64,000 bases of DNA from an uncultured Pseudomonadota bacterium (GCA_949296475.1 CASFOK010000011.1:2300-66299); one strand, 5' to 3'; numbered from the stretch's first letter, positions 1 to 36,056 are shown. A program made the numbers and translations. The notes: a model not told the origin generated them from the sequence alone.

Positions 1-42
1 TGACAATAACATTGCAAATGTTGTCACGGTTAGTTTTTTCAT
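1..42 (-). CDS. 5' end of a signal-peptide-like protein gene that runs off the left edge (MKKLTVTTFAMLLS...)
   Basis: Read by hand. ATG at 42-40 on the minus strand is preceded by a GGAAGGGAG SD-like run (48-56). The start is hydrophobic. It lies 39 nt downstream of the 82-1773 gene on the same strand. Confidence 0.3.
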   Translation of the reverse strand, partial: MKKLTVTTFAMLLS

Positions 43-81
43 GGTTGCTCCCTTCCTTTCTTTCTTAGTTTTTCAAAGTCT

Positions 82-1773
82 TTAATTTGCAGGATTTGTC
101 ACGTTAACCCACGAGATATTCCCGTCACGATCAACAGACAACACACACAAATTAGATTCCGCCTGACATTCTACGCCAGGTTTAGGTATAACATAATCAA
201 CGACAGCCTTGACACTGGTATACTCGTCAACGCTACCTTTATTTAAATCCGTAATGGTTTCCGCTTTATTATCTTTATCTTCTTTTGCCGCCAATGCCGG
301 TCCAAAGTCCCCTTCCATACCGGCTGTAATGGCCTCAGAAATTTTTGTATCTGTTTCTATTTTCGTATAAGCGTTTGTAATGCCATAGTCCGCCAAAGTC
401 GTACCTTTGTTCGCTTTTTTATCTAATTCGGTACGAACAGCCAATTCTGACGGATAGTCCGTATTCGTCGCAGTATCTATATCGCGAACAACAATTCGTT
501 TATTAGCAACGTCTTCTTTTTTAGCCAATTCTTCATTAACATAAGCTGTTGTAGCATAATTACTTAATGCGCTGCTATCAGCCTTGGTCGCCAATGCATC
601 AGCAACGGCCTTTTCTGACGGATAATTTTCTGTGGTTGCTTCTGATACGGAACGAACGGCCTGAACAATTTTATTTACATCTTGCTTGGTTAACAACCCC
701 GTATTCAGCGCGTCTGTAGTGGCATAATCACCTGCATCTTGTTTACCGGCCAAACCTTGTTCCAGTTCTTCTGTCGTTGCGTAATCGCCAACCGGTTGTT
801 TACCCTGCAATGCCTGATAAATTACCTTGCCTTGAACTGCGTTTGTACCATCAGGTGTTAATTCAGAATCAACAACCGCACCTTCGGGTATAACAGGTTT
901 ATCACTTAAATCGTTATAAGAACCTGTTGTGGCAACCGTTGCCAAATTATCAATTTTAGACGCTGGGATATTATCAGGTAAATCAGATACTGTTAAACTA
1001 GAACTACCCGTTACTAAACCCTTGGAATCATATGTTATTTTGGTTCCTGTACCGCCCGTAATTGCAGCATTTGCGGTAACTTTTTGATTCAACTCTTCAA
1101 CAGTCGCATAATTGCCAACAGGCTGTTTTCCGGACAAACCTTGTTCCAATTCTTCTGTCGTTGCATAATCACCTGCATCTTGTTTACCCTGCAGGGCTTG
1201 ATAAATTACCTTGCCTTGAACTGCGTTTGTACCATCGGGCGTTAATTCTGAATCAACAACCGCACCTTCGGGTATAACAGGTTTATCACTTAAATCGTTA
1301 TAAGATCCCGTTGTGGCAACCGTTGCCAAGCCCGTAATTTTATCTGTTGATAGTTGCGGTATATCTTCTGCTGTCAAAGCCTCGCTGCCCGTTACTAATC
1401 CCTTGGAATCGTATGTTATCTTGGTTCCTGTACCGGGTTCTATATCAGGATTTGCGTTTAACTTGCCGTCCACAGCATCAAGGTTTGCCTTGGTTTCCAA
1501 AGCACCATATACCGCAGCAGCAGAAGGATATTGTTCAGACGTTGAAGAAGAATCTATGGTCTGGGTTTTATTCGTTACATCTTCTTTCTTTGCAAGTTCT
1601 GACGCATCTGCTTTTAAATCAACAACCACACTTAAATCATTAACAGTTTGCAATATTCCGTCATCTTTTCTGTCCACATAATCTTTGCTGGCAATTTGCG
1701 CAGCGTTTGCAGAACCGGTATATAATAACCCTGCAATAACTAATAAAGAAACTACATAACTGTTGTTTTTCAT
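82..1773 (-). CDS. Secreted fibrous repeat protein with phage-tail-fibre-type motifs (563 aa)
   Basis: Signal peptide MKNNSYVVSLLVIAGLLYTGSANA|A. Tail-fibre-type motifs present: KITYDSKGLVTG, TGSYNDLSDKP, repeated DYATTEELEQGL, and TLADYGITNAYTK. It contains a ~128-aa internal duplication. No enzymatic motifs seen. Confidence 0.75.
   Translation of the reverse strand: MKNNSYVVSLLVIAGLLYTGSANAAQIASKDYVDRKDDGILQTVNDLSVVVDLKADASELAKKEDVTNKTQTIDSSSTSEQYPSAAAVYGALETKANLDAVDGKLNANPDIEPGTGTKITYDSKGLVTGSEALTAEDIPQLSTDKITGLATVATTGSYNDLSDKPVIPEGAVVDSELTPDGTNAVQGKVIYQALQGKQDAGDYATTEELEQGLSGKQPVGNYATVEELNQKVTANAAITGGTGTKITYDSKGLVTGSSSLTVSDLPDNIPASKIDNLATVATTGSYNDLSDKPVIPEGAVVDSELTPDGTNAVQGKVIYQALQGKQPVGDYATTEELEQGLAGKQDAGDYATTDALNTGLLTKQDVNKIVQAVRSVSEATTENYPSEKAVADALATKADSSALSNYATTAYVNEELAKKEDVANKRIVVRDIDTATNTDYPSELAVRTELDKKANKGTTLADYGITNAYTKIETDTKISEAITAGMEGDFGPALAAKEDKDNKAETITDLNKGSVDEYTSVKAVVDYVIPKPGVECQAESNLCVLSVDRDGNISWVNVTNPAN
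718..1434 (-). repeat. Intragenic tandem duplication, two ~381-384 nt units (aa ~114-240 and ~241-352 of the 563-aa protein)
   Basis: The stretch ataaattaccttgccttgaactgcgtttgtaccatc... starts at 817 and again at 1201 (offset 384). Identity is near-perfect through ~950/1335. A second conserved block (cttggaatc.tatgttat) sits at 1021 and 1402. Confidence 0.9.
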
Positions 1774-1784
1774 ATACCTGCCCC

Positions 1785-4166
1785 CTAGAATACTATATCA
1801 TACCACGTTTTATCGCCGTTATCGTCTGTACCGAACAACTTATTTTTCCCAGCCCCTTCAATTGTTACAACGCCATCTAAATCAGATTTGTCCGCTTTTG
1901 ATTGCAGTGACGTATGTACAGCCAACGCAGATGGATATTCTTCAGACGTAGAATTTTCATCTATGACCTGGGTTTTATTTGATTTGTCTTCTTTACCAGC
2001 CAACGCTTCATCAACACCTTCTATACCGCCAAGCGTTAAATCTTGCAGTTTTTTATCAATTGTTGATTTATCATAAACGCTGTCCACATTTGCCTTGGTT
2101 GACAAAGTACCATACACCGCCGCCGCAGATGGATATTGCACATCCGTAGAAGAAGCGTCTATGGTCTGTGTTTTATTTGATTTATCTTCTTTGGCGTCTA
2201 ATGAAGTGTTAACAAAATCTGTTGTTGCATAAGCCGATAATTCTTCTTTCGTGGCCAAAACACTTAAAGAAGACTTGTCCGCTTTGTCTGACAACTTATT
2301 ATCAACCTCGGTCTTGGTATAAGCATCTTGGATACCGTACCCAGCCAATGTGGTTGCTTTATCTGCTTTTGCAGCCGCTTCTAATCTTGCGGTATCGGCG
2401 GTATCTTGTGCGGTTTCCGCCGCTGATTGTGCGGATTCAGCGGTTGATTGCGCTGTTTCCGCTGCCGACTGGGCGACTGTTGCGGCCTGACTTGCAAGAT
2501 CTGCTATATTTTTTGCTTCATCCGCTGTTGTCACGGCGCTTTCCGCTGTTGTACGAACTTCATCTACTGCTGATGCGGCTTCTTCTGCGATTGCTTTTGC
2601 ATCTTCTGCTGTTGTTTTGGCGCCTTCTGCCGTTTGACTTGCGGTATCAGCGGTTGTTTTTGCCGTTTCTGCTGTTGTACGAACTTCGTCTATCAATTCC
2701 GTTGCCCTATCCGCCGCCTCTTTCGCGGTATTAGCAGTTGATACAGCAGTAGCAGACGCGTTAACGGCGTTCGCCGCCGCCACACCGGCATCGGTCGCCA
2801 AGGTTTTTACATTTCCAACCTCAGTAGACAAAGAATCCAGCGCAGATTTATCAGCCTTTAATGCAACCTCTGATTTCTGGGCATAATTTTCTAGTTCTGA
2901 CTTATCTGCCTTGTCTTCTAATTCAACTTTTGTTGCATAATTTCCCAGTTCTGATTTATCGGCCTTGGTTGCCAAACCAGAATCAACATAATCTGTTTTT
3001 GCATATGCAGATAAATCTACTTCACCGCCAATCGCAGCCTCTGCTATTTTTTGATCAATCGTTTCTTGGTCATAAGTTTCGGTTTTTGTATAAACATCGT
3101 CGGCGTTGGCTTTTGGTGCCAAACCACGCGATACAAACTCCTCTGTTGCATACCCCGTCAGCGCACCGTTATCTAACTTACCGCTTAGTCCATCAGTTAA
3201 CTCTGTTTTCGTTGCATATGTATTCGCCACATCCTCTGTTTTGGCATAATCTAATAATTCATCTTTTGTTGCATAAACAGTGGCCAAGGAATCAACAGCA
3301 TCTGATATCGCCTGATTCATAACTTCATAAGTAGTATAATTAGATAAATCAACAGACGCTACATCACCTGGTTCACCCTTTTCACCTTGGGGCCCTTGTT
3401 CACCACGTTCACCTTGGGGTCCTTGAATTCCTTGTTCACCCTGTGGACCTTGAATACCTTGCAAACCCTGGTCACCCTTTTCACCTTGGGGTCCTTGAAT
3501 TCCTTGCGCACCTTGTGGACCAGTAATTGCAGATATAGGTAATAACTCTATCCAACTACTATCACCTTCCAGACGCCAAACCAACGCCTGTTGTGCGTCA
3601 TCAAAACCTAATTCTACATTTCTGCCGACAACCTCGCCGATATTTTTACGTAATTCGTCTAAATCAAGCCAAATATTATTATCTTCTACATTAATATATT
3701 TATCCGAAGGAATCAGGTTTTCTTGTTTAACTGTATCTAAACGTTCTATTTCTTTTCGTAATTCAGCAATAATTTCTGGATCAACCGTTACATCACCGCC
3801 AGAACTGCTGCCACCAGATGTTCCGGGATTTTGTGGCCTTAATGAACTGCCACCGCTAACTGACCCACTGCCACCTAAATATTGTCCGATGGACAACCTG
3901 GGCGTTGTAAGAACGCGACCGCTTGTCGTAGAAGAACTTGTATTATTAGTATTACTTTGTGTGGTGGTGGGCGATACCCTGACAGAAGCACCACGGACAG
4001 AAGAAGTACCAGAATCAGATGCAACAGCAGCGGCAGCGTTTGACGCACCGTCATACGTACCACTGCCCCCCAACACCCGAACAGAAGACGCCGCATACGC
4101 ACCAGATACCGCGGTGCACAATACGCAAACTATCGCAAGTGTTGATATTTTAAAGTCTTTTTTCAT
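1785..4166 (-). CDS. Secreted collagen-like / tail-fibre-like fibrous protein (793 aa)
   Basis: Signal peptide ...CTAVSGAYA|A, then an S/T/G-rich low-complexity region and 17 G-X-Y triplets. YATK.EL-type repeats follow, then an Ala/Thr-rich coiled-coil-like region with a 42-aa internal repeat (DEVRTTAE twice). Two NKTQ.ID..ST..YPSA.AV cassettes are shared with the 82-1773 protein. It also carries [13 protein letters not shown]. Confidence 0.8.
3366..3521 (-). repeat. Collagen-like triple-helix repeat, (G-X-Y)17
   Basis: Translation reads [52 protein letters not shown]. The plus strand shows the reiterated ccttg(g/a/t) pattern. Confidence 0.95.
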
Positions 4167-4230
4167 ACATTCTCTCTACTTTTATTTATAATATCATATT
4201 TCTGCGAATCGGGTCAATAGTTTTCCTGTT

Positions 4231-4971
4231 TTAAAATTCATACCTTAATCCGATAGAAATAGAGTTATCCAAAATCAAACCGATTTTATTTTCTATACTG
4301 GACTGGTAGAAAACATTCGGTTCGTCTTTATAATACCATTCAAAATCCCTTGCATGCGTTGTGCCCATCAAACCCGCCAGACGATAACGAATATCTAACG
4401 TCAGGTTATAATCCAACTCTTTTGCAAAGCCCACCATTATACTGCCCATTGGCGAGACACTGCTTTTACTTCTTGCACCGCTTTCCATAACAAAATTCTC
4501 GCTATCTAATGTCGTAGTGGGCAAAGCAGCACCAATACCGGCCCCCAGATAAAAACCATTCAAGAAATCCCTATAACCATTTACTATCGCATAAGGCGCT
4601 GACAACGTAAATTCAAAACCTAAATCTTTGTCTGTAAAACGACCTATGTACCCACCTTCTAATTCAACGCGCCACAAGTAATTAAATTTCCAACCTGCCG
4701 CCAGACTGCCACCAAAAACAGGTTCAAAAGAATAAATATCTTCACTAAACTGACCGACTACATAAGGATAATCAGAATCATATTTATTTTTCCAATTTAA
4801 AAAACTTAGTTCTGCACGACCTACAACGTACCACCCGTCTTTTGCCTTATCCTTATAATCATATGTAACCGTATAACCGCCATTGTCATTTGGTGTTATA
4901 TGACTGGGTACTGCAAAAGCCTGCGTCGTAATGAACCCCATAAAAGCAACAAAAAGCATTTTTGTTTTCAT
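4231..4971 (-). CDS. Outer-membrane beta-barrel protein (OmpA-like TM / OMP_b-brl type)
   Basis: Signal peptide MKTKMLFVAFMGFITTQAFA. Alternating aromatic/Gly beta-strand pattern. C-terminal ...IGLRYEF with terminal Phe. Confidence 0.65.
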   Translation of the reverse strand: MKTKMLFVAFMGFITTQAFAVPSHITPNDNGGYTVTYDYKDKAKDGWYVVGRAELSFLNWKNKYDSDYPYVVGQFSEDIYSFEPVFGGSLAAGWKFNYLWRVELEGGYIGRFTDKDLGFEFTLSAPYAIVNGYRDFLNGFYLGAGIGAALPTTTLDSENFVMESGARSKSSVSPMGSIMVGFAKELDYNLTLDIRYRLAGLMGTTHARDFEWYYKDEPNVFYQSSIENKIGLILDNSISIGLRYEF

Positions 4972-11675: not shown

Positions 11676-11706
11676 TAAAAAAAGACGGCAACGCCGTCTT
11701 TTTTTA
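11676..11706. terminator. Bidirectional terminator
   Basis: aaaaaaaGACGGCaacGCCGTCttttttt lies between convergent genes. Confidence 0.7.
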
Positions 11707-12081
11707 AATTAATCCAAAATTACTAAACTGGTTCACACAACCTATCATATTCATACCGGTAGAACTTATTAAGAATTTTAATACAAATCCTATTCCCAGC
11801 AACAAAGAAAAACCAACTATTAAACCCACACCTTTTTTCTTAATATCGTCAGATTTGACGTCGCCAGCAGCAATAAATCCCCATGCCCAACCGGCGATTA
11901 TAAAAGCCGCCCCTATAAACGCAAGTGTACTTAATAAATTAAAAACACCCGACATTTTTACAACTAAATCACATAATGCTGGATTATTTTGCGAGGCAGG
12001 TGCTGCGAAAGACTGACCTAACCCCGTTATAAACATAGCACCGGCAAAACCGATTTTTTTCAATACGTTTTTTAATTTCAT
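11704..12081 (-). CDS. Small membrane protein with TrbC/VirB2-type pilin architecture
   Basis: Signal peptide ...GLGQSFA|APAS, then two hydrophobic helices separated by a short charged loop (…AFIIAGWAWGFIAAGDVKSDDIKKKGVGLIVGFSLLLGIGFVL…). The layout is comparable to Agrobacterium VirB2. Confidence 0.4.
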   Translation of the reverse strand: MKLKNVLKKIGFAGAMFITGLGQSFAAPASQNNPALCDLVVKMSGVFNLLSTLAFIGAAFIIAGWAWGFIAAGDVKSDDIKKKGVGLIVGFSLLLGIGFVLKFLISSTGMNMIGCVNQFSNFGLI

Positions 12082-12195: not shown

Positions 12196-12585
12196 TTACA
12201 TTGCGGAAACGATAACATATCTACGTTTCAAAACTGGTTGATTGCAGGTATTACAACCGCAAGTACGTTTTTCCACCCTTGCTGTACAAGCCGAGCAAGA
12301 CCAACCATCGTTCACTGGTGATAAAATTTGTCTTTCTTGACGTGAAGCGCGACCAAACGTATCGCTTGCGTACAAATCTTCACAGCGTGTGTTTTTATAA
12401 ACTATTTTCTTATTATTATCCATACCATCTATATAGTCAGAAAAATTGCGGCCACGTTCACCAACGTAATAAATACAATCACTGCCATCTTGGGTGTATC
12501 TTACACCACCTTTGTAATAATCATAATAACCGCCGCAACCCGCCAACGCAATTAATGCAAATACAGAAATAAATAAATTTTTCAT
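12196..12585 (-). CDS. Cys-rich lipoprotein, function unknown
   Basis: Lipobox LAGC. Eight further Cys residues, including CSAC and CGCNTC clusters. No recognisable domain. Confidence 0.55.
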   Translation of the reverse strand: MKNLFISVFALIALAGCGGYYDYYKGGVRYTQDGSDCIYYVGERGRNFSDYIDGMDNNKKIVYKNTRCEDLYASDTFGRASRQERQILSPVNDGWSCSACTARVEKRTCGCNTCNQPVLKRRYVIVSAM

Positions 12586-12745
12586 AACGCATCCCTTTAT
12601 TAAATTCTTTACATCTCTTACCTGCCCCCGATTCGTGATTTAATTGTTGCACAAAAATACCCGTTGTCAAGCAAGACAAAAATACATTTATATAATCCAC
12701 AGATAGTATTTATGTTATAATAAAACTATCTAAAAGGACTTTATT

Positions 12746-13690
12746 ATGACTTATGCAGATTATGGTTTAGTTAATACAAAAGATATTTTTACAGACGCAA
12801 TTACAAGACACTATGCGGTACCCGCGTTTAACGTTTATAATATGGAAACGTTATCAGCCGTTGTATCTGCCGCGCGTGACAGCCACAGTCCTGTAATCCT
12901 AGCGGTATCAGAATCCGCCTTGAAATACATGGGTGCCGATATGTTAATGGGCATGGTAAAAGGACTAAAAATCAAGGAATCAGAAAAAATTTCCTTGCAC
13001 CTGGACCATGGCTCTTCACCGGAAATATGCCAAGAAGTTATAAAACTTGGTTTTTCCAGTGTAATGATAGATGCGTCTAAAATGTCGTTCAAAGACAACA
13101 TGTCTGTATCCAAAAAAGTTGCCGACTTTGCACATCAGTTTAATGTCAGCGTAGAAGCAGAACTTGGAACCATTTCCGGCATAGAAGACGAAAACACCAA
13201 AAGCCTGTATTCCAGTTATACCAATCCAGACGACGTTATAAAATTCGTAGAATTCACCAATATAGATTCACTGGCAATTGCAATCGGCACAACCCATGGT
13301 GCTTATAAAAGAAAATCCGAAACAGAAGAACTGCGATTTGATATTTTAGACAAAATCGCACAACGTTTACCAAACTTTCCGCTTGTTTTACATGGCGCAT
13401 CAAGTATACCAGAACATTTTATCAACCTGATTAATAAATATGGTGGCAAGCTGTCTAACGCGCGCGGGATTCCAACACAGCAACTAAAACGTGCCGTAGA
13501 ACTAAATGTTTGTAAAATAAATGTAGACAGCGATTCCAGGTTAGCCTTTACCGCCGGGATACGTGAATCTTTGGCGCAACAACCAGAAAACTTTAACCCA
13601 CGCGAATATTTATCTTGTGGCAAAAAAAACATATACGATAATTGCATAAAAGAAATTCAAGAAATAATGAATTCCGCAAACAAGGCGTAA
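12746..13690 (+). CDS. fba: Class II fructose-1,6-bisphosphate aldolase
   Basis: Motifs PAFNVYNME, LHLDHG, VMIDAS, VEAELG, IGTTHGAYK, LVLHGASS. Confidence 0.9.
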   Translation: MTYADYGLVNTKDIFTDAITRHYAVPAFNVYNMETLSAVVSAARDSHSPVILAVSESALKYMGADMLMGMVKGLKIKESEKISLHLDHGSSPEICQEVIKLGFSSVMIDASKMSFKDNMSVSKKVADFAHQFNVSVEAELGTISGIEDENTKSLYSSYTNPDDVIKFVEFTNIDSLAIAIGTTHGAYKRKSETEELRFDILDKIAQRLPNFPLVLHGASSIPEHFINLINKYGGKLSNARGIPTQQLKRAVELNVCKINVDSDSRLAFTAGIRESLAQQPENFNPREYLSCGKKNIYDNCIKEIQEIMNSANKA

Positions 13691-20114: not shown

Positions 20115-20579
20115 TCATTCGCCGTATGTTATCTGAACGATATTTTGACCGTTTGGATAATTGCAAGCACCAACCGCGCCACTTTCTGTGCGCCCTGATT
20201 GTTCGTACCCGACAGAGCCGTCCCAAGCCTTTGTTACGAAATATTCACAATCAGATTGCGATAAACCAGTTATAGAAATAATAAACTGTCTGGTATTAGA
20301 GGGGTTGACGGATATTTCATATAAACCACCATAAGGGTTCTTGTTTGATATACCAATTGCCCCAAATATTGTAGAATTATTTATATTTGAATAATCGTCA
20401 TATTCACCAAATAATTGTCGTACTTGTGTAACCATCTGCAAAACGTCGTCATTGACCGAGTTCTTTTTTTGCAAACTCATTGCGCTGGAAATTGCCGCAA
20501 TGGCGCCGACAGTTATAACCCCCATAATTGCAAGTACACCCATCATTTCTATCATTGAACGTCCTGATTCTTGTCTCAT
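20115..20579 (-). CDS. Type IV pilin-like (prepilin-type N-terminal cleavage domain) protein
   Basis: MRQESG|RSMIEMMGVLAIMGVITVGAIAAI has a short basic leader ending in Gly, Glu at +5, and a ~20-aa hydrophobic helix. Start set at ATG 20579 behind GGGGGA. Two C-terminal Cys residues. Confidence 0.65.
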   Translation of the reverse strand: MRQESGRSMIEMMGVLAIMGVITVGAIAAISSAMSLQKKNSVNDDVLQMVTQVRQLFGEYDDYSNINNSTIFGAIGISNKNPYGGLYEISVNPSNTRQFIISITGLSQSDCEYFVTKAWDGSVGYEQSGRTESGAVGACNYPNGQNIVQITYGE

Positions 20580-26419: not shown

Positions 26420-27562
26420 TTATCGGATACCGACGCGGAACTGATCGCCCCAATCGGCAACGACCTGGCCGCCAACGGTGCATTTAATATCTTCAAAACC
26501 ACTTTCTACCTGATTCTTTTTAACGACGTTACTTGTAATCAAACCGCCTGCGGTACCCAGCACGACCCCAGCGACCGAATCGGAAACCAAACGTGCAGTA
26601 TTAAAATTACCGTCCTCGTCTTTCCACACACTAAGTTCAAATCTACCAGAAATATCATCTAATATTTTAATAGTACTTGTAATTTTTGTACGCGACTGTT
26701 GTTGCTCCTTTTCATTTGCTGCCTGTTTTGCTGCTTCTTGTTCTTTCTGTTTTTGAAGCGCATTCTCTTCTTCTAGTTTGTCTATCATTTCACTTAATGT
26801 TTGATACATTGTGTTAAAATCATCTGGCTGTTTATTCTTGCCTTCACAATAGTCTTCCAATTGTTTAATTGCGGCCAAAATCTTTTGGTTAGTAGCATAT
26901 GTAATCTTCCACCTTACCAGCTGTTGCAACTTCTCTTGATCGCATTCATATTCTTCTACTATTGCTTGTTGTTGTGACGGTGCTGGCTTGTTACTTGATG
27001 TATTATTTTTTTGTGCTGTTTGATTGCTATTTTTTGTATTACTTACTTTTGTTGTTGACTGTGGTGACGTATTTGTTGTGTTTGCATTTGATGTTTTTTT
27101 CGTATTTACTTTACAAATACCTGTTGCAGTAGCACCAACACAATAATTATCAAAAACAGCTTCACAATAATAATCATAATCGCCTGATGTAATAAATTTT
27201 TGTTTACCGTTAGTATCTTTACAATTTGATATATAATCCAAATTAGATTTTGACCATGCATTGCTACCAGATGTTGAGCAGGTATACACTCCAATAGCTT
27301 CATGTCTTTCGTTTCTCCAATAGTGTTCACTGTTTATCATGACCTTAGCACCAGAATCGCATCCTTTTGTACCTCTATGTCCACAAACCAATGCACGCCC
27401 ATTTGCATCTTTAAAATCCCCAAATGTAGGGAATAGAAATTCATTAGATACTTTAAATGAAAACGGCGAAATTTCTTGAACTCGACACTCATAAGTTGCT
27501 GCGAACGAAGAAAAATTCAACCCACAAACAATAAAAGTGTTAAATAATAAAAACTTTTTCAT
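26420..27562 (-). CDS. Secreted hypothetical protein (Cys-rich N-domain, T/S/N/Q-rich linker, coiled coil, Gly-zipper segment)
   Basis: Signal peptide MKKFLLFNTFIVCGLNFSSFA|A. About 13 Cys in the first ~150 aa after it. Low-complexity TSNANTTNTSPQSTTKVSNTKNSNQ. Coiled coil EEENALQKQKEQEAAKQAANEKEQQQ. Gly-zipper VAGVVLGTAGGLI. Confidence 0.6.
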   Translation of the reverse strand: MKKFLLFNTFIVCGLNFSSFAATYECRVQEISPFSFKVSNEFLFPTFGDFKDANGRALVCGHRGTKGCDSGAKVMINSEHYWRNERHEAIGVYTCSTSGSNAWSKSNLDYISNCKDTNGKQKFITSGDYDYYCEAVFDNYCVGATATGICKVNTKKTSNANTTNTSPQSTTKVSNTKNSNQTAQKNNTSSNKPAPSQQQAIVEEYECDQEKLQQLVRWKITYATNQKILAAIKQLEDYCEGKNKQPDDFNTMYQTLSEMIDKLEEENALQKQKEQEAAKQAANEKEQQQSRTKITSTIKILDDISGRFELSVWKDEDGNFNTARLVSDSVAGVVLGTAGGLITSNVVKKNQVESGFEDIKCTVGGQVVADWGDQFRVGIR

Positions 27563-30367: not shown

Positions 30368-31201
30368 TTAATTAACCCCCAGTAAATATTCATAATTATA
30401 TTGACTGCACTCGTCAGGTTTCTCTGCCCCATTCCAAATATTTTTTTCACATTCTGTCTTCAGTGTTTGCAGTGCCTGCTTAAATTTATCAAATTCTTGT
30501 TTATTTTCTTGTTTTAACACAAGCAATTGAGAACGCATTCTATCTTCTGCTGACAAATTTGTGTTTTTCTGACCTTCAACACTGCCACCTATTAAACGAT
30601 TACCAAACAGTTCCATTGAACCAACGCCAATACCTGCACCACCAACAACGCCACCAACAGTTGCCCATGTACGTGCGGTTTTCTTGGCATCCAAGATTCG
30701 TTGCCGCAATGTCTCTTCATCTGCCCAAGAACCACAAGTTATATCGCGCCCCATTTCAAAATATTGACTTGGAACATCAGATACGCTTATTTTCGGGTCA
30801 TCGGAACGCAGTTCAACCTTAACAAAACAAATGTTATTTTCCGGGTTTTGCGTATCTTCTATCATGGAAGCATAGTTATTTGAATTGCTATACCGCGACG
30901 CCCAAACAAAAGTATTTCCGACGCCGATATTATTGTTTATACATGCCGCCTTTTCTTTTTCGCGCAAATCAACTGTATTTGCTGGTTTCGCATCTATATC
31001 AACGCGCACAGACGATTCGACATTTGTATTACCAGAATTTGCCGCCGCCATAGCACTTATTTGATTGGTAGAGGCCGTCGCACGTGGCGCGGTCATAACC
31101 ATTTGAGAATTCATAGAACGTCTTGATTGCGTATCTGCGGTAACCGCCATTGCCGGCAAACAAGCAGAAAACGCGATAAGCGAAAAAATAAACTTTTTCA
31201 T
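30368..31201 (-). CDS. Secreted hypothetical protein (277 aa) with Gly-zipper segment and C-terminal Cys-containing helix region
   Basis: Start trimmed to ATG 31201 (MKKFIFSLIAFSACLPAMA|V signal peptide). Contains TARTWATVGGVVGGAGIGVG. Followed by the hairpin AAAGCCCTttacAGGGCTTT at ~30343-30366. Confidence 0.6.
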   Translation of the reverse strand: MKKFIFSLIAFSACLPAMAVTADTQSRRSMNSQMVMTAPRATASTNQISAMAAANSGNTNVESSVRVDIDAKPANTVDLREKEKAACINNNIGVGNTFVWASRYSNSNNYASMIEDTQNPENNICFVKVELRSDDPKISVSDVPSQYFEMGRDITCGSWADEETLRQRILDAKKTARTWATVGGVVGGAGIGVGSMELFGNRLIGGSVEGQKNTNLSAEDRMRSQLLVLKQENKQEFDKFKQALQTLKTECEKNIWNGAEKPDECSQYNYEYLLGVN

Positions 31202-31309
31202 TATTCTCTTTCCTCTTTCATTAAAATAATTATACCACAAAATAAGTAAAAAATAAAGGTAAACTATGTTTATATTATAAAACCGCACTAATTATTGTGC
31301 GGTTTGATT

Positions 31310-32242: not shown

Positions 32243-32273
32243 AAAAAAGTCGCATATTAATGCGACTTTTTTA
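32243..32273. terminator. Bidirectional terminator after rpsT
   Basis: aaaaaGTCGCAtattaaTGCGACttttt. Confidence 0.7.
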
Positions 32274-32288
32274 TAACCGTATAAAAAA

Positions 32289-32678
32289 CTAATTAACCCA
32301 AATAAAAGCGCGTCCCTCTGGCGCATCTCCTGATGGCATAGTCATCGGAACAGAATCTAATGCCGGGTCAGACTTGTCCAATTTAGTATCCAACGCATTT
32401 TTAACGGTTTGTGCGTTATAGTATTGCTGCGCGTTTGATACAGCGTCCAAACTGGTTAATTTGTTTTCAACGTTCTCTAAATTGCTTATATCAGGTATAA
32501 CCGGTTTATTTTTAATATAATCGGGGGCCGACGAATCGCTTTGATTCCAATCTGCTTGTATATTTTTTACGGCATCTACTATGGAATTAACGTACCCCTG
32601 TGATGCAAGTTCCGCATTAGCAGGCAATGCGCACAACCCCATAATTAAAGTAAAAATATATATTTTTGTATATTTCAT
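32289..32678 (-). CDS. Small secreted protein with phage-tail-fibre-type motif (129 aa)
   Basis: Signal peptide ...LCALPANA|E. ADWNQSDSSAPDYIKNKPVIP matches the DWN..D...P.YIKNKP tail-fibre motif. C-terminal GRAFIWVN resembles the C-termini of the 82-1773 and 1785-4166 proteins. Begins 28 nt after the secretin stop. Confidence 0.65.
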   Translation of the reverse strand: MKYTKIYIFTLIMGLCALPANAELASQGYVNSIVDAVKNIQADWNQSDSSAPDYIKNKPVIPDISNLENVENKLTSLDAVSNAQQYYNAQTVKNALDTKLDKSDPALDSVPMTMPSGDAPEGRAFIWVN

Positions 32679-32706
32679 TCTCTCGCACTATCCCGTAAAG
32701 AAACCT

Positions 32707-34335
32707 TTAATTTAAAGGCGCCCCCCAATGCTGTTGTATGCTACGTTCTACATCCATCGGACTGATTAATACCTGTGGCGTTAAAATAACCACCAGCACA
32801 TCACGTGTTGCCGACGTTTCGCGCGAACCAGACAAAGCCATAAAGTCAGGATCGCCCAACCCATAACGCGTATCATTATTTGTCTGTTTTTCAAACCCTG
32901 ACACGACCAGCATTTGCCCAGATTCCATAATAACTTCTTGCATGAAACTACGTTCCTCAACTTCTGGCAACTGCAAAGTAACTTCGCCGATCGTTTGCGT
33001 TGACATTTTCAACAATTCACGAACAGACATTCTGAACAGCAAAAGTATTTTACCATTTTCCAAGACATTTGGCAACAACTGCATTGAAAAACCTGTTTCC
33101 AAATCGTCTTGATCAACGGTACTTGACTCTACTGTTGTGAAGTTTCTAGACTCAAACCTTTTGATGTAACCCGTTGTTTTTGTGTTGTTTACTGGCGCAA
33201 CGCGATTGTTACGAGTAGTAACGCCGACGTTGGTAACCAAGGATACCTTTCCTTGTTTTGCAAGTGCTTCTATCAAGGCATTACTTCCTGCAACGCCGGA
33301 TAAAGACCCATTTTGTATTTGATCTTGGGTATAAGCACCTACAACTTCTGTACCATTTTCTTGGTGCGTCGCCCCTGTTAACGCGGATACTGTATTAGAC
33401 AAAACCGCGATATTCATGGCATTTGCTTCTGTCGTAGCCAAGTTATTCTTTGGGTTTGCGACGATATTCAAACCAGATGCAGAATTTATCGCAGCTGCTA
33501 AATTCAAACCAAAAGCCGAATCGTTTGATATAGAAACTTGTAACACTTTGACATCAATTGTAACTAGTTGTGATAAACGTTTATTCTGGCGCGCGATATA
33601 TTCCCCTACTCTATTTAATATGGACGGAGGCGCGGTTACAGTAATAGTTCCCAAACTGCGAGAAACAGTAAATTTAGCGTTATCAACATCGCCAACAATT
33701 GCAGATATTGCACTTTCTACTTCGTCCCACTCTTTTAAAGTAGATTCCAAAGACACCTGATTACCGTCATCTGTTTCTACGGCTGTTTGATAAGACACAT
33801 CCGTTCCCAGCGCATATAAAGTAAACGTTTTTGTTTCTGTTTCATAAAAAACGATTGACGTTTTATTATAATACCATAACAAGTCCAAATCTGTCGCAAT
33901 CTGAGACAATAACCCAGATAGTTTTCCTGTATAAGCAACGTTTATAGTTTTCTTTAATTTTTCTGAATTAACTTGACTGTCTATTTTAACTGGTATGCCT
34001 GTAATTGAAGTTATATCGTTTGCCAAAACCTGCAAGCTTACGGGCTCATTTAATAAAATTGTAATACCTGTATCCGTTTCAAACTGTGAAGGTAAATTAT
34101 TTCTGTGTTCTAAAATCGTTGACGATGCCCCCAACCAAACGCCTTCGGACATAGACACAGTATCGCCGCTTTCAACTTTGGCGCGCGGATTTTTTGCCAT
34201 TTCAAAAGCATCATATGCATTTATAAAATCTTGATCAACAGACGCAGCAACTTTTGCGGATTCTTCTTTTGCGCAACCCGTAAACATCGTGCATAACACA
34301 CCGCATACTATCAAAAATTTCATTGGCTTGATCAT
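32707..34335 (-). CDS. PilN-type (type IVb pilus) lipoprotein secretin
   Basis: Lipobox MFTGC. C-terminal secretin-domain pattern ...SGQMLVVSGFEKQ....RYGLGDP...LSGS......RDVLVVILTPQVL. 542 aa. Confidence 0.7.
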   Translation of the reverse strand: MIKPMKFLIVCGVLCTMFTGCAKEESAKVAASVDQDFINAYDAFEMAKNPRAKVESGDTVSMSEGVWLGASSTILEHRNNLPSQFETDTGITILLNEPVSLQVLANDITSITGIPVKIDSQVNSEKLKKTINVAYTGKLSGLLSQIATDLDLLWYYNKTSIVFYETETKTFTLYALGTDVSYQTAVETDDGNQVSLESTLKEWDEVESAISAIVGDVDNAKFTVSRSLGTITVTAPPSILNRVGEYIARQNKRLSQLVTIDVKVLQVSISNDSAFGLNLAAAINSASGLNIVANPKNNLATTEANAMNIAVLSNTVSALTGATHQENGTEVVGAYTQDQIQNGSLSGVAGSNALIEALAKQGKVSLVTNVGVTTRNNRVAPVNNTKTTGYIKRFESRNFTTVESSTVDQDDLETGFSMQLLPNVLENGKILLLFRMSVRELLKMSTQTIGEVTLQLPEVEERSFMQEVIMESGQMLVVSGFEKQTNNDTRYGLGDPDFMALSGSRETSATRDVLVVILTPQVLISPMDVERSIQQHWGAPLN

Positions 34336-34373
34336 TTATCATCTCCTCTGGCAAAAAACAAGAAACACAACAC

Positions 34374-35315
34374 CTACTCTTCCGAAGTAGAAATCACAAG
34401 TACCCTGTTACCCTTGTAAAACTTTGCATATGGTATTGGGGTTGCCCTTGCAAAATTTCTGACTAACGCGGACGCAACATCAACAAAACGTCCTTTAAAG
34501 ACCGCACTGGCTTCTATTGGATATTCACGAGACGTTGCCCATACTAAATCCCAACCTTCTTTATTACACCAATCTTGTAAAACCTCTCTCAACGTTTGAC
34601 CGCTGGCGACCACCCAAGAACGAACCTGATCCGACACGTTAACTGGCGCTTCTGCATCGGCAGAAATATCAACAGAAATTTCTGTCTCTGTCGTTTCAGA
34701 AGTTGAACTTTCATTAACGTCGGCTATTTCCGTTTCTGTCATCCCCATTTTTACAGCAAACGCCTGATAATCATCGGTATAATTACCACAGTTTTTTCTA
34801 CCGCTACGAGACACAGTCAAAACAGCCCCGCCATCGTCTTCTAGCATTTCACGATGCAACAACGGCATTTCAGAGCCATTATTACACTCGTCATCAAAAC
34901 CGACAGGAATTTGCGTTCCATGTAACATATTTGCACCGCCAGACCAACCGTTAAAATCGCCATCTGTCGCGCCTAAATTAAAATTATTTTCAACCACTAA
35001 ATCCGCGCCTATTTTTGAAACAACGCGAATATTATCAGACTGTTTTGACTGCGAACACATACCATCTTCGCACGCGATTTCCACATCTGCATCAGACCCA
35101 GCAATTGGCCAAACAGGTACCGTTGCGGGATTTGACTCTTGTACAACCACCTGCCCAGTTGTCTGTTCTTGCACCGCATAATTATTCGTTTCAGAGTCAT
35201 TTTGTTGGGTATAAAACACCTCTGACGTAACGACCTGGGGTGGAACCATATCCGCAGCAAAGCAATAACCCGCAGCGGTTGCAAACATTGCGACAATTAA
35301 AATTTTACGGAACAT
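34374..35315 (-). CDS. PilL/TcpQ-like pilus-biogenesis protein (TcpQ C-terminal domain)
   Basis: Start trimmed to ATG 35315 (MFRKILIVAMFATAAGYCFA signal) behind GGAAAGGAAG. The C-terminal W.V..GQTLREVLQDWC.KEGW.LVW....YPIEASAVF.G.F..... matches the TcpQ/PilL domain pattern. Confidence 0.6.
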   Translation of the reverse strand: MFRKILIVAMFATAAGYCFAADMVPPQVVTSEVFYTQQNDSETNNYAVQEQTTGQVVVQESNPATVPVWPIAGSDADVEIACEDGMCSQSKQSDNIRVVSKIGADLVVENNFNLGATDGDFNGWSGGANMLHGTQIPVGFDDECNNGSEMPLLHREMLEDDGGAVLTVSRSGRKNCGNYTDDYQAFAVKMGMTETEIADVNESSTSETTETEISVDISADAEAPVNVSDQVRSWVVASGQTLREVLQDWCNKEGWDLVWATSREYPIEASAVFKGRFVDVASALVRNFARATPIPYAKFYKGNRVLVISTSEE

Positions 35316-35510
35316 AAAAACTTCCTTTCCTGAATTAATTACTCTATTAATTAAACTTATTATATCAATTTGACCGAATCTGTGCAAGATTAAAACGCAC
35401 CGCAATTTAGCAAAACTTTAAAAAGTTACAATTATTCCAAGATAAAATCGCACGAATCGCAAAAACGTGTTATACTAGGCATATTAAACAAACATCTTCA
35501 GGATTAAATT

Positions 35511-36056
35511 ATGAACAACACATTGTTTTTATTTAGTATTTTGACGCTTATCGTTATATCAACTGTCATGTTATATTTTATGTTCAAAATACACACACGT
35601 ATAAAAGGCATGAACAAAACTTTGACCCATCAATACAACTTGATTGTTAAGATACAATCCGTATTAAAAAACAAATCTGCAACGAACGCCATTTCAGAAA
35701 ACGCAGAGATGATTTATCAAGACTTACTACAAAATTTGATTCCGATTATGGCGGCGATTGATGTTATGCCACGAAATACCGCCGAACATCCGCTATGGCG
35801 TGCACTTGGCGGAATAATGGACGAATACGCCAAGAACCCATTTGCATTGGAAAAATTGCGCCGTTGCATTAAACTTGATTCAGAAGTGTCTCGTTGCATA
35901 GACAATTATATAAATCGCGCAGATACATTTTTACATTACTTGACTACCACCGACCCAGAAGGCATTTTATCTGCAACCTTTACAGACGGTCTGCTGGGGC
36001 AATCGTTAACCTTTTTTACACAGGCAAAGCAACTGGCCCTGCAAACGAACGAATAA
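35511..36056 (+). CDS. Membrane-anchored hypothetical protein, abutting sufB
   Basis: N-terminal TM (LFLFSILTLIVISTVMLYFMF) followed by a helical soluble domain. Its stop TAA (36054-36056) directly abuts the sufB ATG at 36057. Confidence 0.5.
   Translation: MNNTLFLFSILTLIVISTVMLYFMFKIHTRIKGMNKTLTHQYNLIVKIQSVLKNKSATNAISENAEMIYQDLLQNLIPIMAAIDVMPRNTAEHPLWRALGGIMDEYAKNPFALEKLRRCIKLDSEVSRCIDNYINRADTFLHYLTTTDPEGILSATFTDGLLGQSLTFFTQAKQLALQTNE

Follow-up and report, generated by a model that had tools for sequence, protein, structure and literature searches.

We analyzed a stretch of 64,000 nucleotides (nt) from an uncultured bacterium (GCA_949296475.1, CASFOK010000011.1:2300-66299), referred to in its whole length as the window, and within it a cluster of three genes at positions 32289-35315. 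Two of these genes encode a secretin and its partner protein, and we consider it probable, at roughly 0.6, that this pair forms the outer-membrane module within a dispersed type IVb pilus machine in a gut alphaproteobacterium with a reduced genome. The third gene encodes a short protein carrying a phage tail-fibre motif. An initial annotation of this DNA, which proposed the pair as a possible export gate for a family of fibre proteins, recognized the feature correctly but over-interpreted it.

All three genes lie on the minus strand. The first (34374-35315), whose ATG start is the same as in its homologues, encodes a secretin partner of the BfpG/TcpQ/PilL type (313 amino acids); the second (32707-34335) encodes a lipoprotein secretin of the type IVb (BfpB/TcpC/PilN) class (542 amino acids); and the third (32289-32678) encodes a Sec-exported, short fibre-like protein of 129 amino acids and occupies what proved to be a hypervariable slot. 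The co-directional arrangement, with gaps of 38 and 28 nt, is as initially annotated. The same holds for the flanking genes rpsT and sufB, with the addition that a gene for a conserved, 181-residue membrane protein (p181) lies between sufB and the TcpQ-like gene. This p181 gene (35511-36056, plus strand) encodes a single-pass membrane protein without a family match. It invariably separates the TcpQ-like gene from sufB, with a stop codon that directly adjoins the start of sufB, and its product is 62-85% identical across species and 46% identical in a sister lineage. The flanks of the locus consist of housekeeping genes (suf, rpsT, plsY, dprA, dnaA), without any plasmid or integrative-element context.

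The assignments of the pair, i.e., a TcpQ-domain protein and a PilN-type secretin, were borne out by Pfam, by NCBIfam and by both chains of a known structure, 9U5S. The partner has a Sec signal peptide and a long N-terminal region ahead of a C-terminal TcpQ domain (Pfam PF10671, N0-like; residues 232-309, E = 1e-17, 64.4 bits against a cut-off of 27), which likens it to the partner in the toxin-coregulated pilus (TCP) of Vibrio cholerae. In the secretin, Pfam Secretin (PF00263) scored 51.8 bits (cut-off 27.5) over residues 357-523, and the best NCBIfam model was TIGR02520, the type IVb secretin PilN (240.2 bits), a likeness to the thin pilus of R64; the next model was MshL, at 92 bits. The PilN score lies below the equivalog cut-off of 287.65 bits, but since the secretin of a related locus that sits inside a full pilus operon (L094, 245.2 bits) also falls short, this reflects the divergence of the clade. 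The signal sequence of the secretin ends in FTGC, and the lipobox cysteine, Cys21, is invariant in 19 relatives.

When compared with structures in the PDB, the secretin matched BfpB (9u5s chain A, E = 6e-38; 4.4e-83 with a profile of its clade), and the TcpQ-like protein matched BfpG (9u5s chain R, E = 5.7e-15). This structure shows BfpB and BfpG as assembled in the secretin complex of enteropathogenic Escherichia coli (EPEC), which serves the bundle-forming pilus of the type IVb class; the complex has 17:17 stoichiometry, and BfpG is bound by an N-terminal domain of BfpB (PMC12531336). Because the two proteins match the two chains of this complex, we regard the domain assignments as correct. 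As in EPEC, the secretin is a lipoprotein. The alignment of the clade profile also took in residues 14-96 of the BfpB chain, an N-terminal segment that probably includes the BfpG-binding region. The partners differ in length, with 313 residues and an extra N-terminal region in the window protein versus 114 residues in the deposited BfpG chain.

A scan of contigs returned 442 relatives of the secretin, and the best 80 of these, each from a different species genome and 85-99% identical, were used for comparison. Where their records give a genus name it is Candidatus Enterousia, and most are labelled uncultured Alphaproteobacteria; a complete metagenome-assembled genome of the group (L018, OZ007020.1) comprises 958,618 bp. 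Enterousia belongs to the order Rs-D84, whose genomes are smaller than 1 Mb and lack the tricarboxylic acid cycle, respiration and standard transporters; their metabolic potential is very limited, and a partner-dependent lifestyle has been suggested (PMC12306168). The gene order sufB-p181-TcpQ-secretin was kept in all 80 species loci, with the TcpQ-like gene (58-80% identity) directly upstream of the secretin in every case. Across 79 species, the median identity to the window protein was 87.6% for the secretin, compared with 82.4% for ribosomal protein S20 and 78.4% for SufB; the medians across species for the TcpQ-like protein and DprA were 72.5% and 65.6%, respectively. By this measure none of the neighbouring proteins is as constrained as the secretin, which is therefore not a decaying relic; decay of the gene pair as a whole was also ruled out by its high conservation. 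It is unusual for an outer-membrane protein to be more conserved than S20 and SufB. One contig with the Enterousia TcpQ-secretin pair (L079, CAVGNU010000003.1) has been deposited in a bin named "Bacteroides fragilis", which probably reflects misbinning in the public record.

We then examined how far the pair is separated from the genes that usually accompany it. A search of 1.84 billion representative proteins gave one tight secretin cluster, after which identity dropped to 43%; a metagenome scan seeded with the nearest secretins outside this cluster supplied 80 loci as more distant contexts. A sister lineage (L091), with a secretin that is 72% identical, has the same arrangement as Enterousia. 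In the next relatives (35-40% identity; L093, L094, L096 and L097) an ATPase motif followed the secretin at a distance of about 3 kb, and L094 and L096 displayed the full order TcpQ-secretin-PAP_PilO-PilP-like-T2SSE ATPase-T2SSF platform, confirmed for L094 by Pfam and NCBIfam. These operon-embedded relatives thus resemble the R64 thin pilus cluster (pilL-pilV) in having TcpQ/PilL-PilN-PilO-PilP-ATPase-platform. Among non-Enterousia relatives generally, the TcpQ gene lay just upstream of the secretin in 52 of 57, and an ATPase motif lay no more than 6 kb downstream (median 2.8 kb) in 41 of the 46 that had at least 5 kb of downstream sequence.

Among the Enterousia species loci, 60 extend at least 5 kb past the secretin, and none of them showed such a motif downstream of it. 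Similarly, tblastn with the PilO, PilP, ATPase and platform (PilR) proteins of L094 and L096 gave no significant match (E ≤ 0.1) in either the window or 91 loci of the Enterousia lineage, searched up to 10 kb from the secretin. Beyond the ends of the window, about 8 kb on the left and about 7 kb on the right contained nothing but housekeeping genes and more fibre genes. Judged by gene neighbourhood, the pair has clearly been parted from the inner-membrane genes of an R64-type pilL-pilR cluster: unlike R64, the Enterousia lineage lacks pilO, pilP, pilQ (the ATPase) and pilR (the platform) at the secretin locus and, unlike the EPEC pair, its genes are chromosomal, in a genome of less than 1 Mb, and the remainder of the pilus operon does not come after them. 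A 35%-identical secretin of another lineage (L102, Ga0123353_10012618), with 10 kb of downstream sequence free of an ATPase motif, may represent a second, independent detachment of a type IVb secretin.

The initial annotation stated that none of the other pilus genes is present in the window. This stands for the ATPase and the platform, for which no homologue was found, but it is wrong in that a prepilin-type gene lies at 20115-20579 (minus strand), between uvrC and rluC and about 12 kb from the secretin. It encodes a candidate major pilin of the type IVb type, with 154 residues and two conserved cysteines. The open reading frame starts with MRQESG followed by RSMIEMMGVLAIMGVITVGA, giving the prepilin motif MRQESG/RSMIEM. 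The glycine at -1 (G6), the glutamate at +5 (E11), C111 and C139 were invariant in 27 homologues, and the gene is kept across the genus at 69-100% identity; in NCBI sources it is annotated as "type II secretion system protein". The Pfam N_methyl score, at 16.5 bits, was under the cut-off of 21.2.

A model of the pilin made with AlphaFold2 (AF2) had a predicted local distance difference test (pLDDT) score of 82.6 and comprised a long N-terminal helix (residues 8-57) and a β-sheet head. Its only fold matches in the PDB at E ≤ 0.001 were to TcpA of V. cholerae in the TCP filament (8uhf; E = 1.4e-4 with a template modelling (TM) score of 0.49, and for chain B E = 1.7e-4, TM score 0.60 and root mean square deviation 2.9 Å) and to a type IVb pilin of enterotoxigenic E. 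coli (9iuf; E = 4.6e-4). By its modelled fold and its C-terminal cysteine pair, the protein is a candidate for the type IVb class. Type IVb pilins typically have a long leader of about 15-30 residues. That of the window protein, MRQESG, has 6 residues from the start codon that most homologues use, in which it differs from the TCP pilin. A further difference is that the tcp genes form one operon, whereas in the window 12 kb separate pilin and secretin, and genes for an ATPase, platform or peptidase were not found in the DNA examined. In the sister lineage the pilin is about 7 kb from the secretin. The pilin gene keeps uvrC and rluC as neighbours even where the block has moved beside the secretin (L052). 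When the window was scanned for additional prepilins with relaxed criteria, the only candidate was TatB, a false positive. A cleavable and conserved pilin implies that a prepilin peptidase and an assembly machine are encoded somewhere in the genome. The description of the pair as an orphan is thus apt in the sense that it is locally separated from the usual operon, which is unusual, but orphan status is not shown, with a type IVb pilin 12 kb away.

The product of the third gene of the cluster has a signal-peptide-like N-terminus, the motif DWNQSDSSAPDYIKNKP (DWNQSD..APDYIKNKP) and the C-terminus ..P.G.AP.G.AFIWVN, confirming its description as a Sec-exported protein with a tail-fibre motif. 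It had no match in Pfam, NCBIfam or PHROG. Only two near-identical homologues were found among 5.8 billion proteins by a search that relies on shared words, and family members at 26-50% identity do exist. The gene was present in strains that are 99% identical (L005 and L011). The AF2 model of the protein (pLDDT 39.1) was unusable.

A bidirectional, terminator-like hairpin (AAAAAA-GTCGCA-TTAATA-TGCGAC-TTTTTT, 32243-32272), read straight off the sequence and not flagged by an automated scanner, lies between the 129-residue gene and the convergent rpsT, and a similar hairpin ends the secretin-rpsT gap in relatives that have nothing in the slot. Because the gap to the secretin is only 28 nt and the terminator is located after the 129-residue gene, the latter and the secretin probably share a transcript in this strain. 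The best match to a sigma-70-like promoter (TGCACA, 16 nt, TG-TATAAT; minus strand, 35359-35386), with 10 of 12 positions matching by consensus only, is 5' of the TcpQ-like gene, and in this strain the three genes look like a single transcription unit.

A hidden Markov model (HMM) of the C-terminal region of the 129-residue protein recovered family members in 17 of the 80 species loci, always directly after the secretin and on the same strand. They have a signal peptide, an N-terminal (I/V)AS..YV, an optional DWNQ.D..DYIKNKP, a variable middle that is swapped between members, and the C-terminus D.RF.T.PT..P.G.PP.GQVFIWFN. The longer members match head- and tail-fibre families of PHROG (5711, 23008, 2012, 8780 and others) with E values from 1e-7 to 4e-16, and the motif DWNQ.D..PDYIKNKP recurs in two metagenomic proteins of 200 residues without a signal peptide, P0123 and P0124, which we take to be phage-like. 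Unlike phage fibres, the family has Sec signal peptides and is found in a bacterial chromosome without phage genes nearby; on these two grounds a prophage origin of the third gene was ruled out.

Among the 80 species loci, the slot between secretin and rpsT was empty in 29, held the 129-residue family in 17, a cysteine-rich protein in 10 and other genes in 6, was rearranged in 14, and could not be assessed in 4. Even relatives whose secretin is 90-92% identical have either an empty slot, with rpsT following after about 90 nt (L006, L007), or a gene for a cysteine-rich protein of 434-592 residues. Species with a fibre gene occur at scattered points of the secretin tree, and the closest relatives of the window (L012-L015) have an empty slot; in an alignment with empty-slot relatives, the 129-residue gene stands out as a clean insertion of about 420 nt, bounded by the stop codon of the secretin on one side and the terminator on the other. 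Given this patchy distribution, the empty slots of the closest relatives and the clean insertion, these comparisons indicate that the third gene is a recent, strain-level accessory and lies outside the conserved unit. The proposed link between the pair and a fibre cargo is accordingly not borne out by co-occurrence, the pair being present in 80 of 80 loci and the family next to the secretin in 17 only. In most fibre-bearing species the gap between secretin and fibre gene is roughly 150-460 nt, and in L002, where the slot holds a cysteine-rich gene, a terminator-like hairpin is found directly 3' of the secretin.

Two further families adjoin or share this slot. In eight species (L024, L026, L033, L048, L050, L065, L086 and L090; in each at about 12270-13470), a glycine-rich protein of about 325-331 residues (MP.INI.DIQIPVQ ... 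SFVRIYRFG) is encoded directly after the fibre-family gene, with which it looks like a module; it gave a weak, sub-threshold match to Pfam Gly_rich_2. The secreted cysteine-rich family has 260-960 residues with up to 91 cysteines, and a C-terminal segment of the form ..FNTARL.SDS.A.VVLGT.G.L.TSNVVKK.QV.SGFEDI.C..GGQ.VA.WGD.F.VG... Its members occupy the slot after the secretin in about ten species; loci with such a slot gene include L001-L004, L016, L019, L027, L032, L060 and L071. In the window a member adjoins dnaA (26420-27562, minus strand).

The large fibres that the initial annotation linked to the 129-residue protein are encoded in an array of genes with Sec signals at 82-4971 of the window (minus strand), with counterparts at 1-8076 in L171 and 1-8911 in L172; the array continues past the left end of the window. 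Within the window (82-4166) there are two fibres, one of 563 residues and one of 793 residues with collagen repeats, and in related strains there are at least two more past the left end (375 residues, and collagen-like proteins of 611+ and 885+ residues), a region in which contigs tend to break. The fibres are preceded by a gene (4231-4971) for a 246-residue protein resembling outer-membrane proteins, which ends ...GLRYEF, an aromatic end typical of that class. The 129-residue protein and the window fibres have one repeat module in common (BLASTP, 4e-6 and 2e-4). However, the claim that they have the same W-V-N ending is weak, since the 563-residue fibre has WVN nine residues from its end and the 793-residue fibre ends TWYDIVF; the fibres have instead a common cysteine-containing ending, C..CVL....G...W, unlike that of the 129-residue family. 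The C-terminal HMM of that family matched neither window fibre, and a shared C-terminal "WVN" secretion signal was rejected on account of this and of the differing endings.

Taking these results together, we propose that the secretin would form a channel in the outer membrane, and that its TcpQ/BfpG/PilL-type partner would bind the N-terminal domain of the secretin and stabilize the ring, as in the BfpB-BfpG complex. The pilin would be processed and polymerized by inner-membrane components presumed to be encoded elsewhere in the genome, and the filament would exit the cell through the secretin. The role of the pilus would probably be attachment to the surface of a partner or host, or possibly DNA uptake. 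The third gene would encode a Sec-exported short fibre built of phage-fibre-type modules, inserted between secretin and rpsT.

Several observations weigh against this proposal. The window, about 17 kb of its flanks and Enterousia loci covering 1.5 Mb about the secretin yielded no assembly ATPase, platform protein, prepilin peptidase, PilO/PilP or minor pilin; that the inner-membrane half is encoded elsewhere in the genome is something we infer from the conservation of the pilin and the constraint on the secretin. Apart from genes directly after the secretin, the 129-residue family HMM matched nothing in the window and nothing in the roughly 3 Mb of loci examined, including the type IVb operons of other lineages, a pattern that would at least fit a functional link; this DNA is, however, heavily biased to the secretin neighbourhood, so that "never elsewhere" is a weak statement. 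Finally, the only genomic survey of Rs-D84 gives type IV pili for another lineage and not for Rs-D84 (PMC12306168); being pathway-based, however, it may miss type IVb genes.

Alternative explanations bear on the third gene, on the nature of the machine and on its role. One is that the 129-residue family comprises pilus exoproteins or tip fibres, exported by Sec and then carried through the secretin by the growing pilus. We consider this unlikely, and hold the same view of its corollary, in which the slot beside the secretin would be a swap site for alternative adhesive fibres. The idea of a cargo, in this pilus-dependent version, is biologically plausible and not unprecedented. V. cholerae TCP exports an operon-encoded, Sec-dependent protein, TcpF (PMC10120004), and exoproteins encoded in type IVb operons are established, an N-terminal signal binding to the minor pilin at the tip during export of both TcpF and CofJ (PMC10120004, PMC9565799, PMC6048534). 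TcpF and CofJ are known examples of Sec-exported proteins whose genes belong to a type IVb pilus operon and which leave by way of the pilus machine (PMC10120004, PMC6048534). Consistent with such a role, family members occur immediately after the secretin and nowhere else in the DNA searched, they combine a Sec signal and conserved termini with a swapped middle, and in this strain co-transcription with the secretin is probable; a Sec signal together with a gene in the pilus cluster, as expected of an exoprotein, was found in the lineage of this strain and in 16 further species. However, the fetched DNA is skewed to one neighbourhood, the gene is absent from about 78% of the species that keep the secretin, and unrelated cysteine-rich proteins or nothing at all may occupy the same slot. 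The wide gap between secretin and fibre gene in most fibre-bearing species and the hairpin right after the secretin in L002 also count against it, as does the failure to find a minor pilin receptor in the window, its flanks or the secretin neighbourhoods. No Pfam family links the 129-residue proteins to TcpF or CofJ. That the fibre protein is exported through the secretin is possible but unsupported. More doubtful still is a bolder proposal, in which the slot serves to swap phage-fibre-like adhesins exported or displayed by the type IVb machine, as a diversifying counterpart of TcpF and CofJ for attaching to changing partners, an extreme version of which would dispense with a conventional inner-membrane machine.

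The export gate of the initial annotation, i.e., a stand-alone, two-gene gate that exports the large fibres of 1-4166 and beyond without pilus machinery, appears highly improbable. An ATPase, platform or peptidase was indeed not seen in the Enterousia DNA that was fetched, the fibres have Sec signals without recognizable features of autotransporters or of type I secretion, and the survey does not list type IV pili for Rs-D84 (PMC12306168). Such a gate is, however, difficult to reconcile with the presence in the window of a type IVb pilin that is conserved and whose prepilin motif is intact, with the position of the fibre array, at least 28 kb away and beside its own gene for an outer-membrane-protein-like product, and with the absence from the fibres of the C-terminal motif of the 129-residue family. 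Moreover, secretins have no energy source of their own, for which reason a gate free of any machine is not plausible; every characterized secretin, to our knowledge, works with an inner-membrane machine driven by an ATPase. There is also the question of whether the machine is mainly a competence pilus, taking up DNA for nucleotides or transformation, with the secretin as the DNA entry port. This we rate as having little chance of being correct. It would fit the presence of dprA about 2 kb from the secretin in most species (in the order secretin-rpsT-plsY-p306-dprA), and the very limited metabolism and lack of standard transporters in Rs-D84 (PMC12306168). Against this, dprA lies outside the operon of the secretin, and comEC, comF and comEA were not seen in the window. 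The type IVb class also does not fit, the DNA-uptake pili known to us being of the type IVa or Com type. The competence explanation bears on the role of the pilus only, and is compatible with identification of the pair as the outer-membrane module of a type IVb machine.

Two other genes of the window may be mentioned. Between plsY and dprA (30368-31288, minus strand) there is, in most species, a gene for a conserved secreted protein of about 280-306 residues without a family match, with the motif NNIGVGNTFVWASRYS and a glycine-rich hydrophobic segment, TWATVGG.VGGAG.GVG. The product of the gene at 11704-12081 (minus strand) has 125 residues, with a signal peptide and two hydrophobic helices in a layout that recalls pilins of the VirB2/TrbC type; it had no Pfam match at E ≤ 0.05, and there were no type IV secretion genes nearby.

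Candidatus Enterousia and the order Rs-D84 are widespread, uncultured gut bacteria with genomes of less than 1 Mb that are thought to live off a partner (PMC12306168), and the type IVb pilus proposed for these cells is a point absent from published surveys. The secretin pair and the pilin are kept in every species sampled. This universal retention, together with a secretin that is more tightly conserved than a ribosomal protein or SufB, suggests that a type IVb pilus would be key to how these cells attach or feed. Since the genes for a type IVb pilus can be scattered on the chromosome, searches for whole operons can miss them. What makes the locus noteworthy is the strong conservation of the secretin in so small a genome, together with the adjoining fibre slot, whose variability makes it a concrete place to look for strain-specific adhesins.

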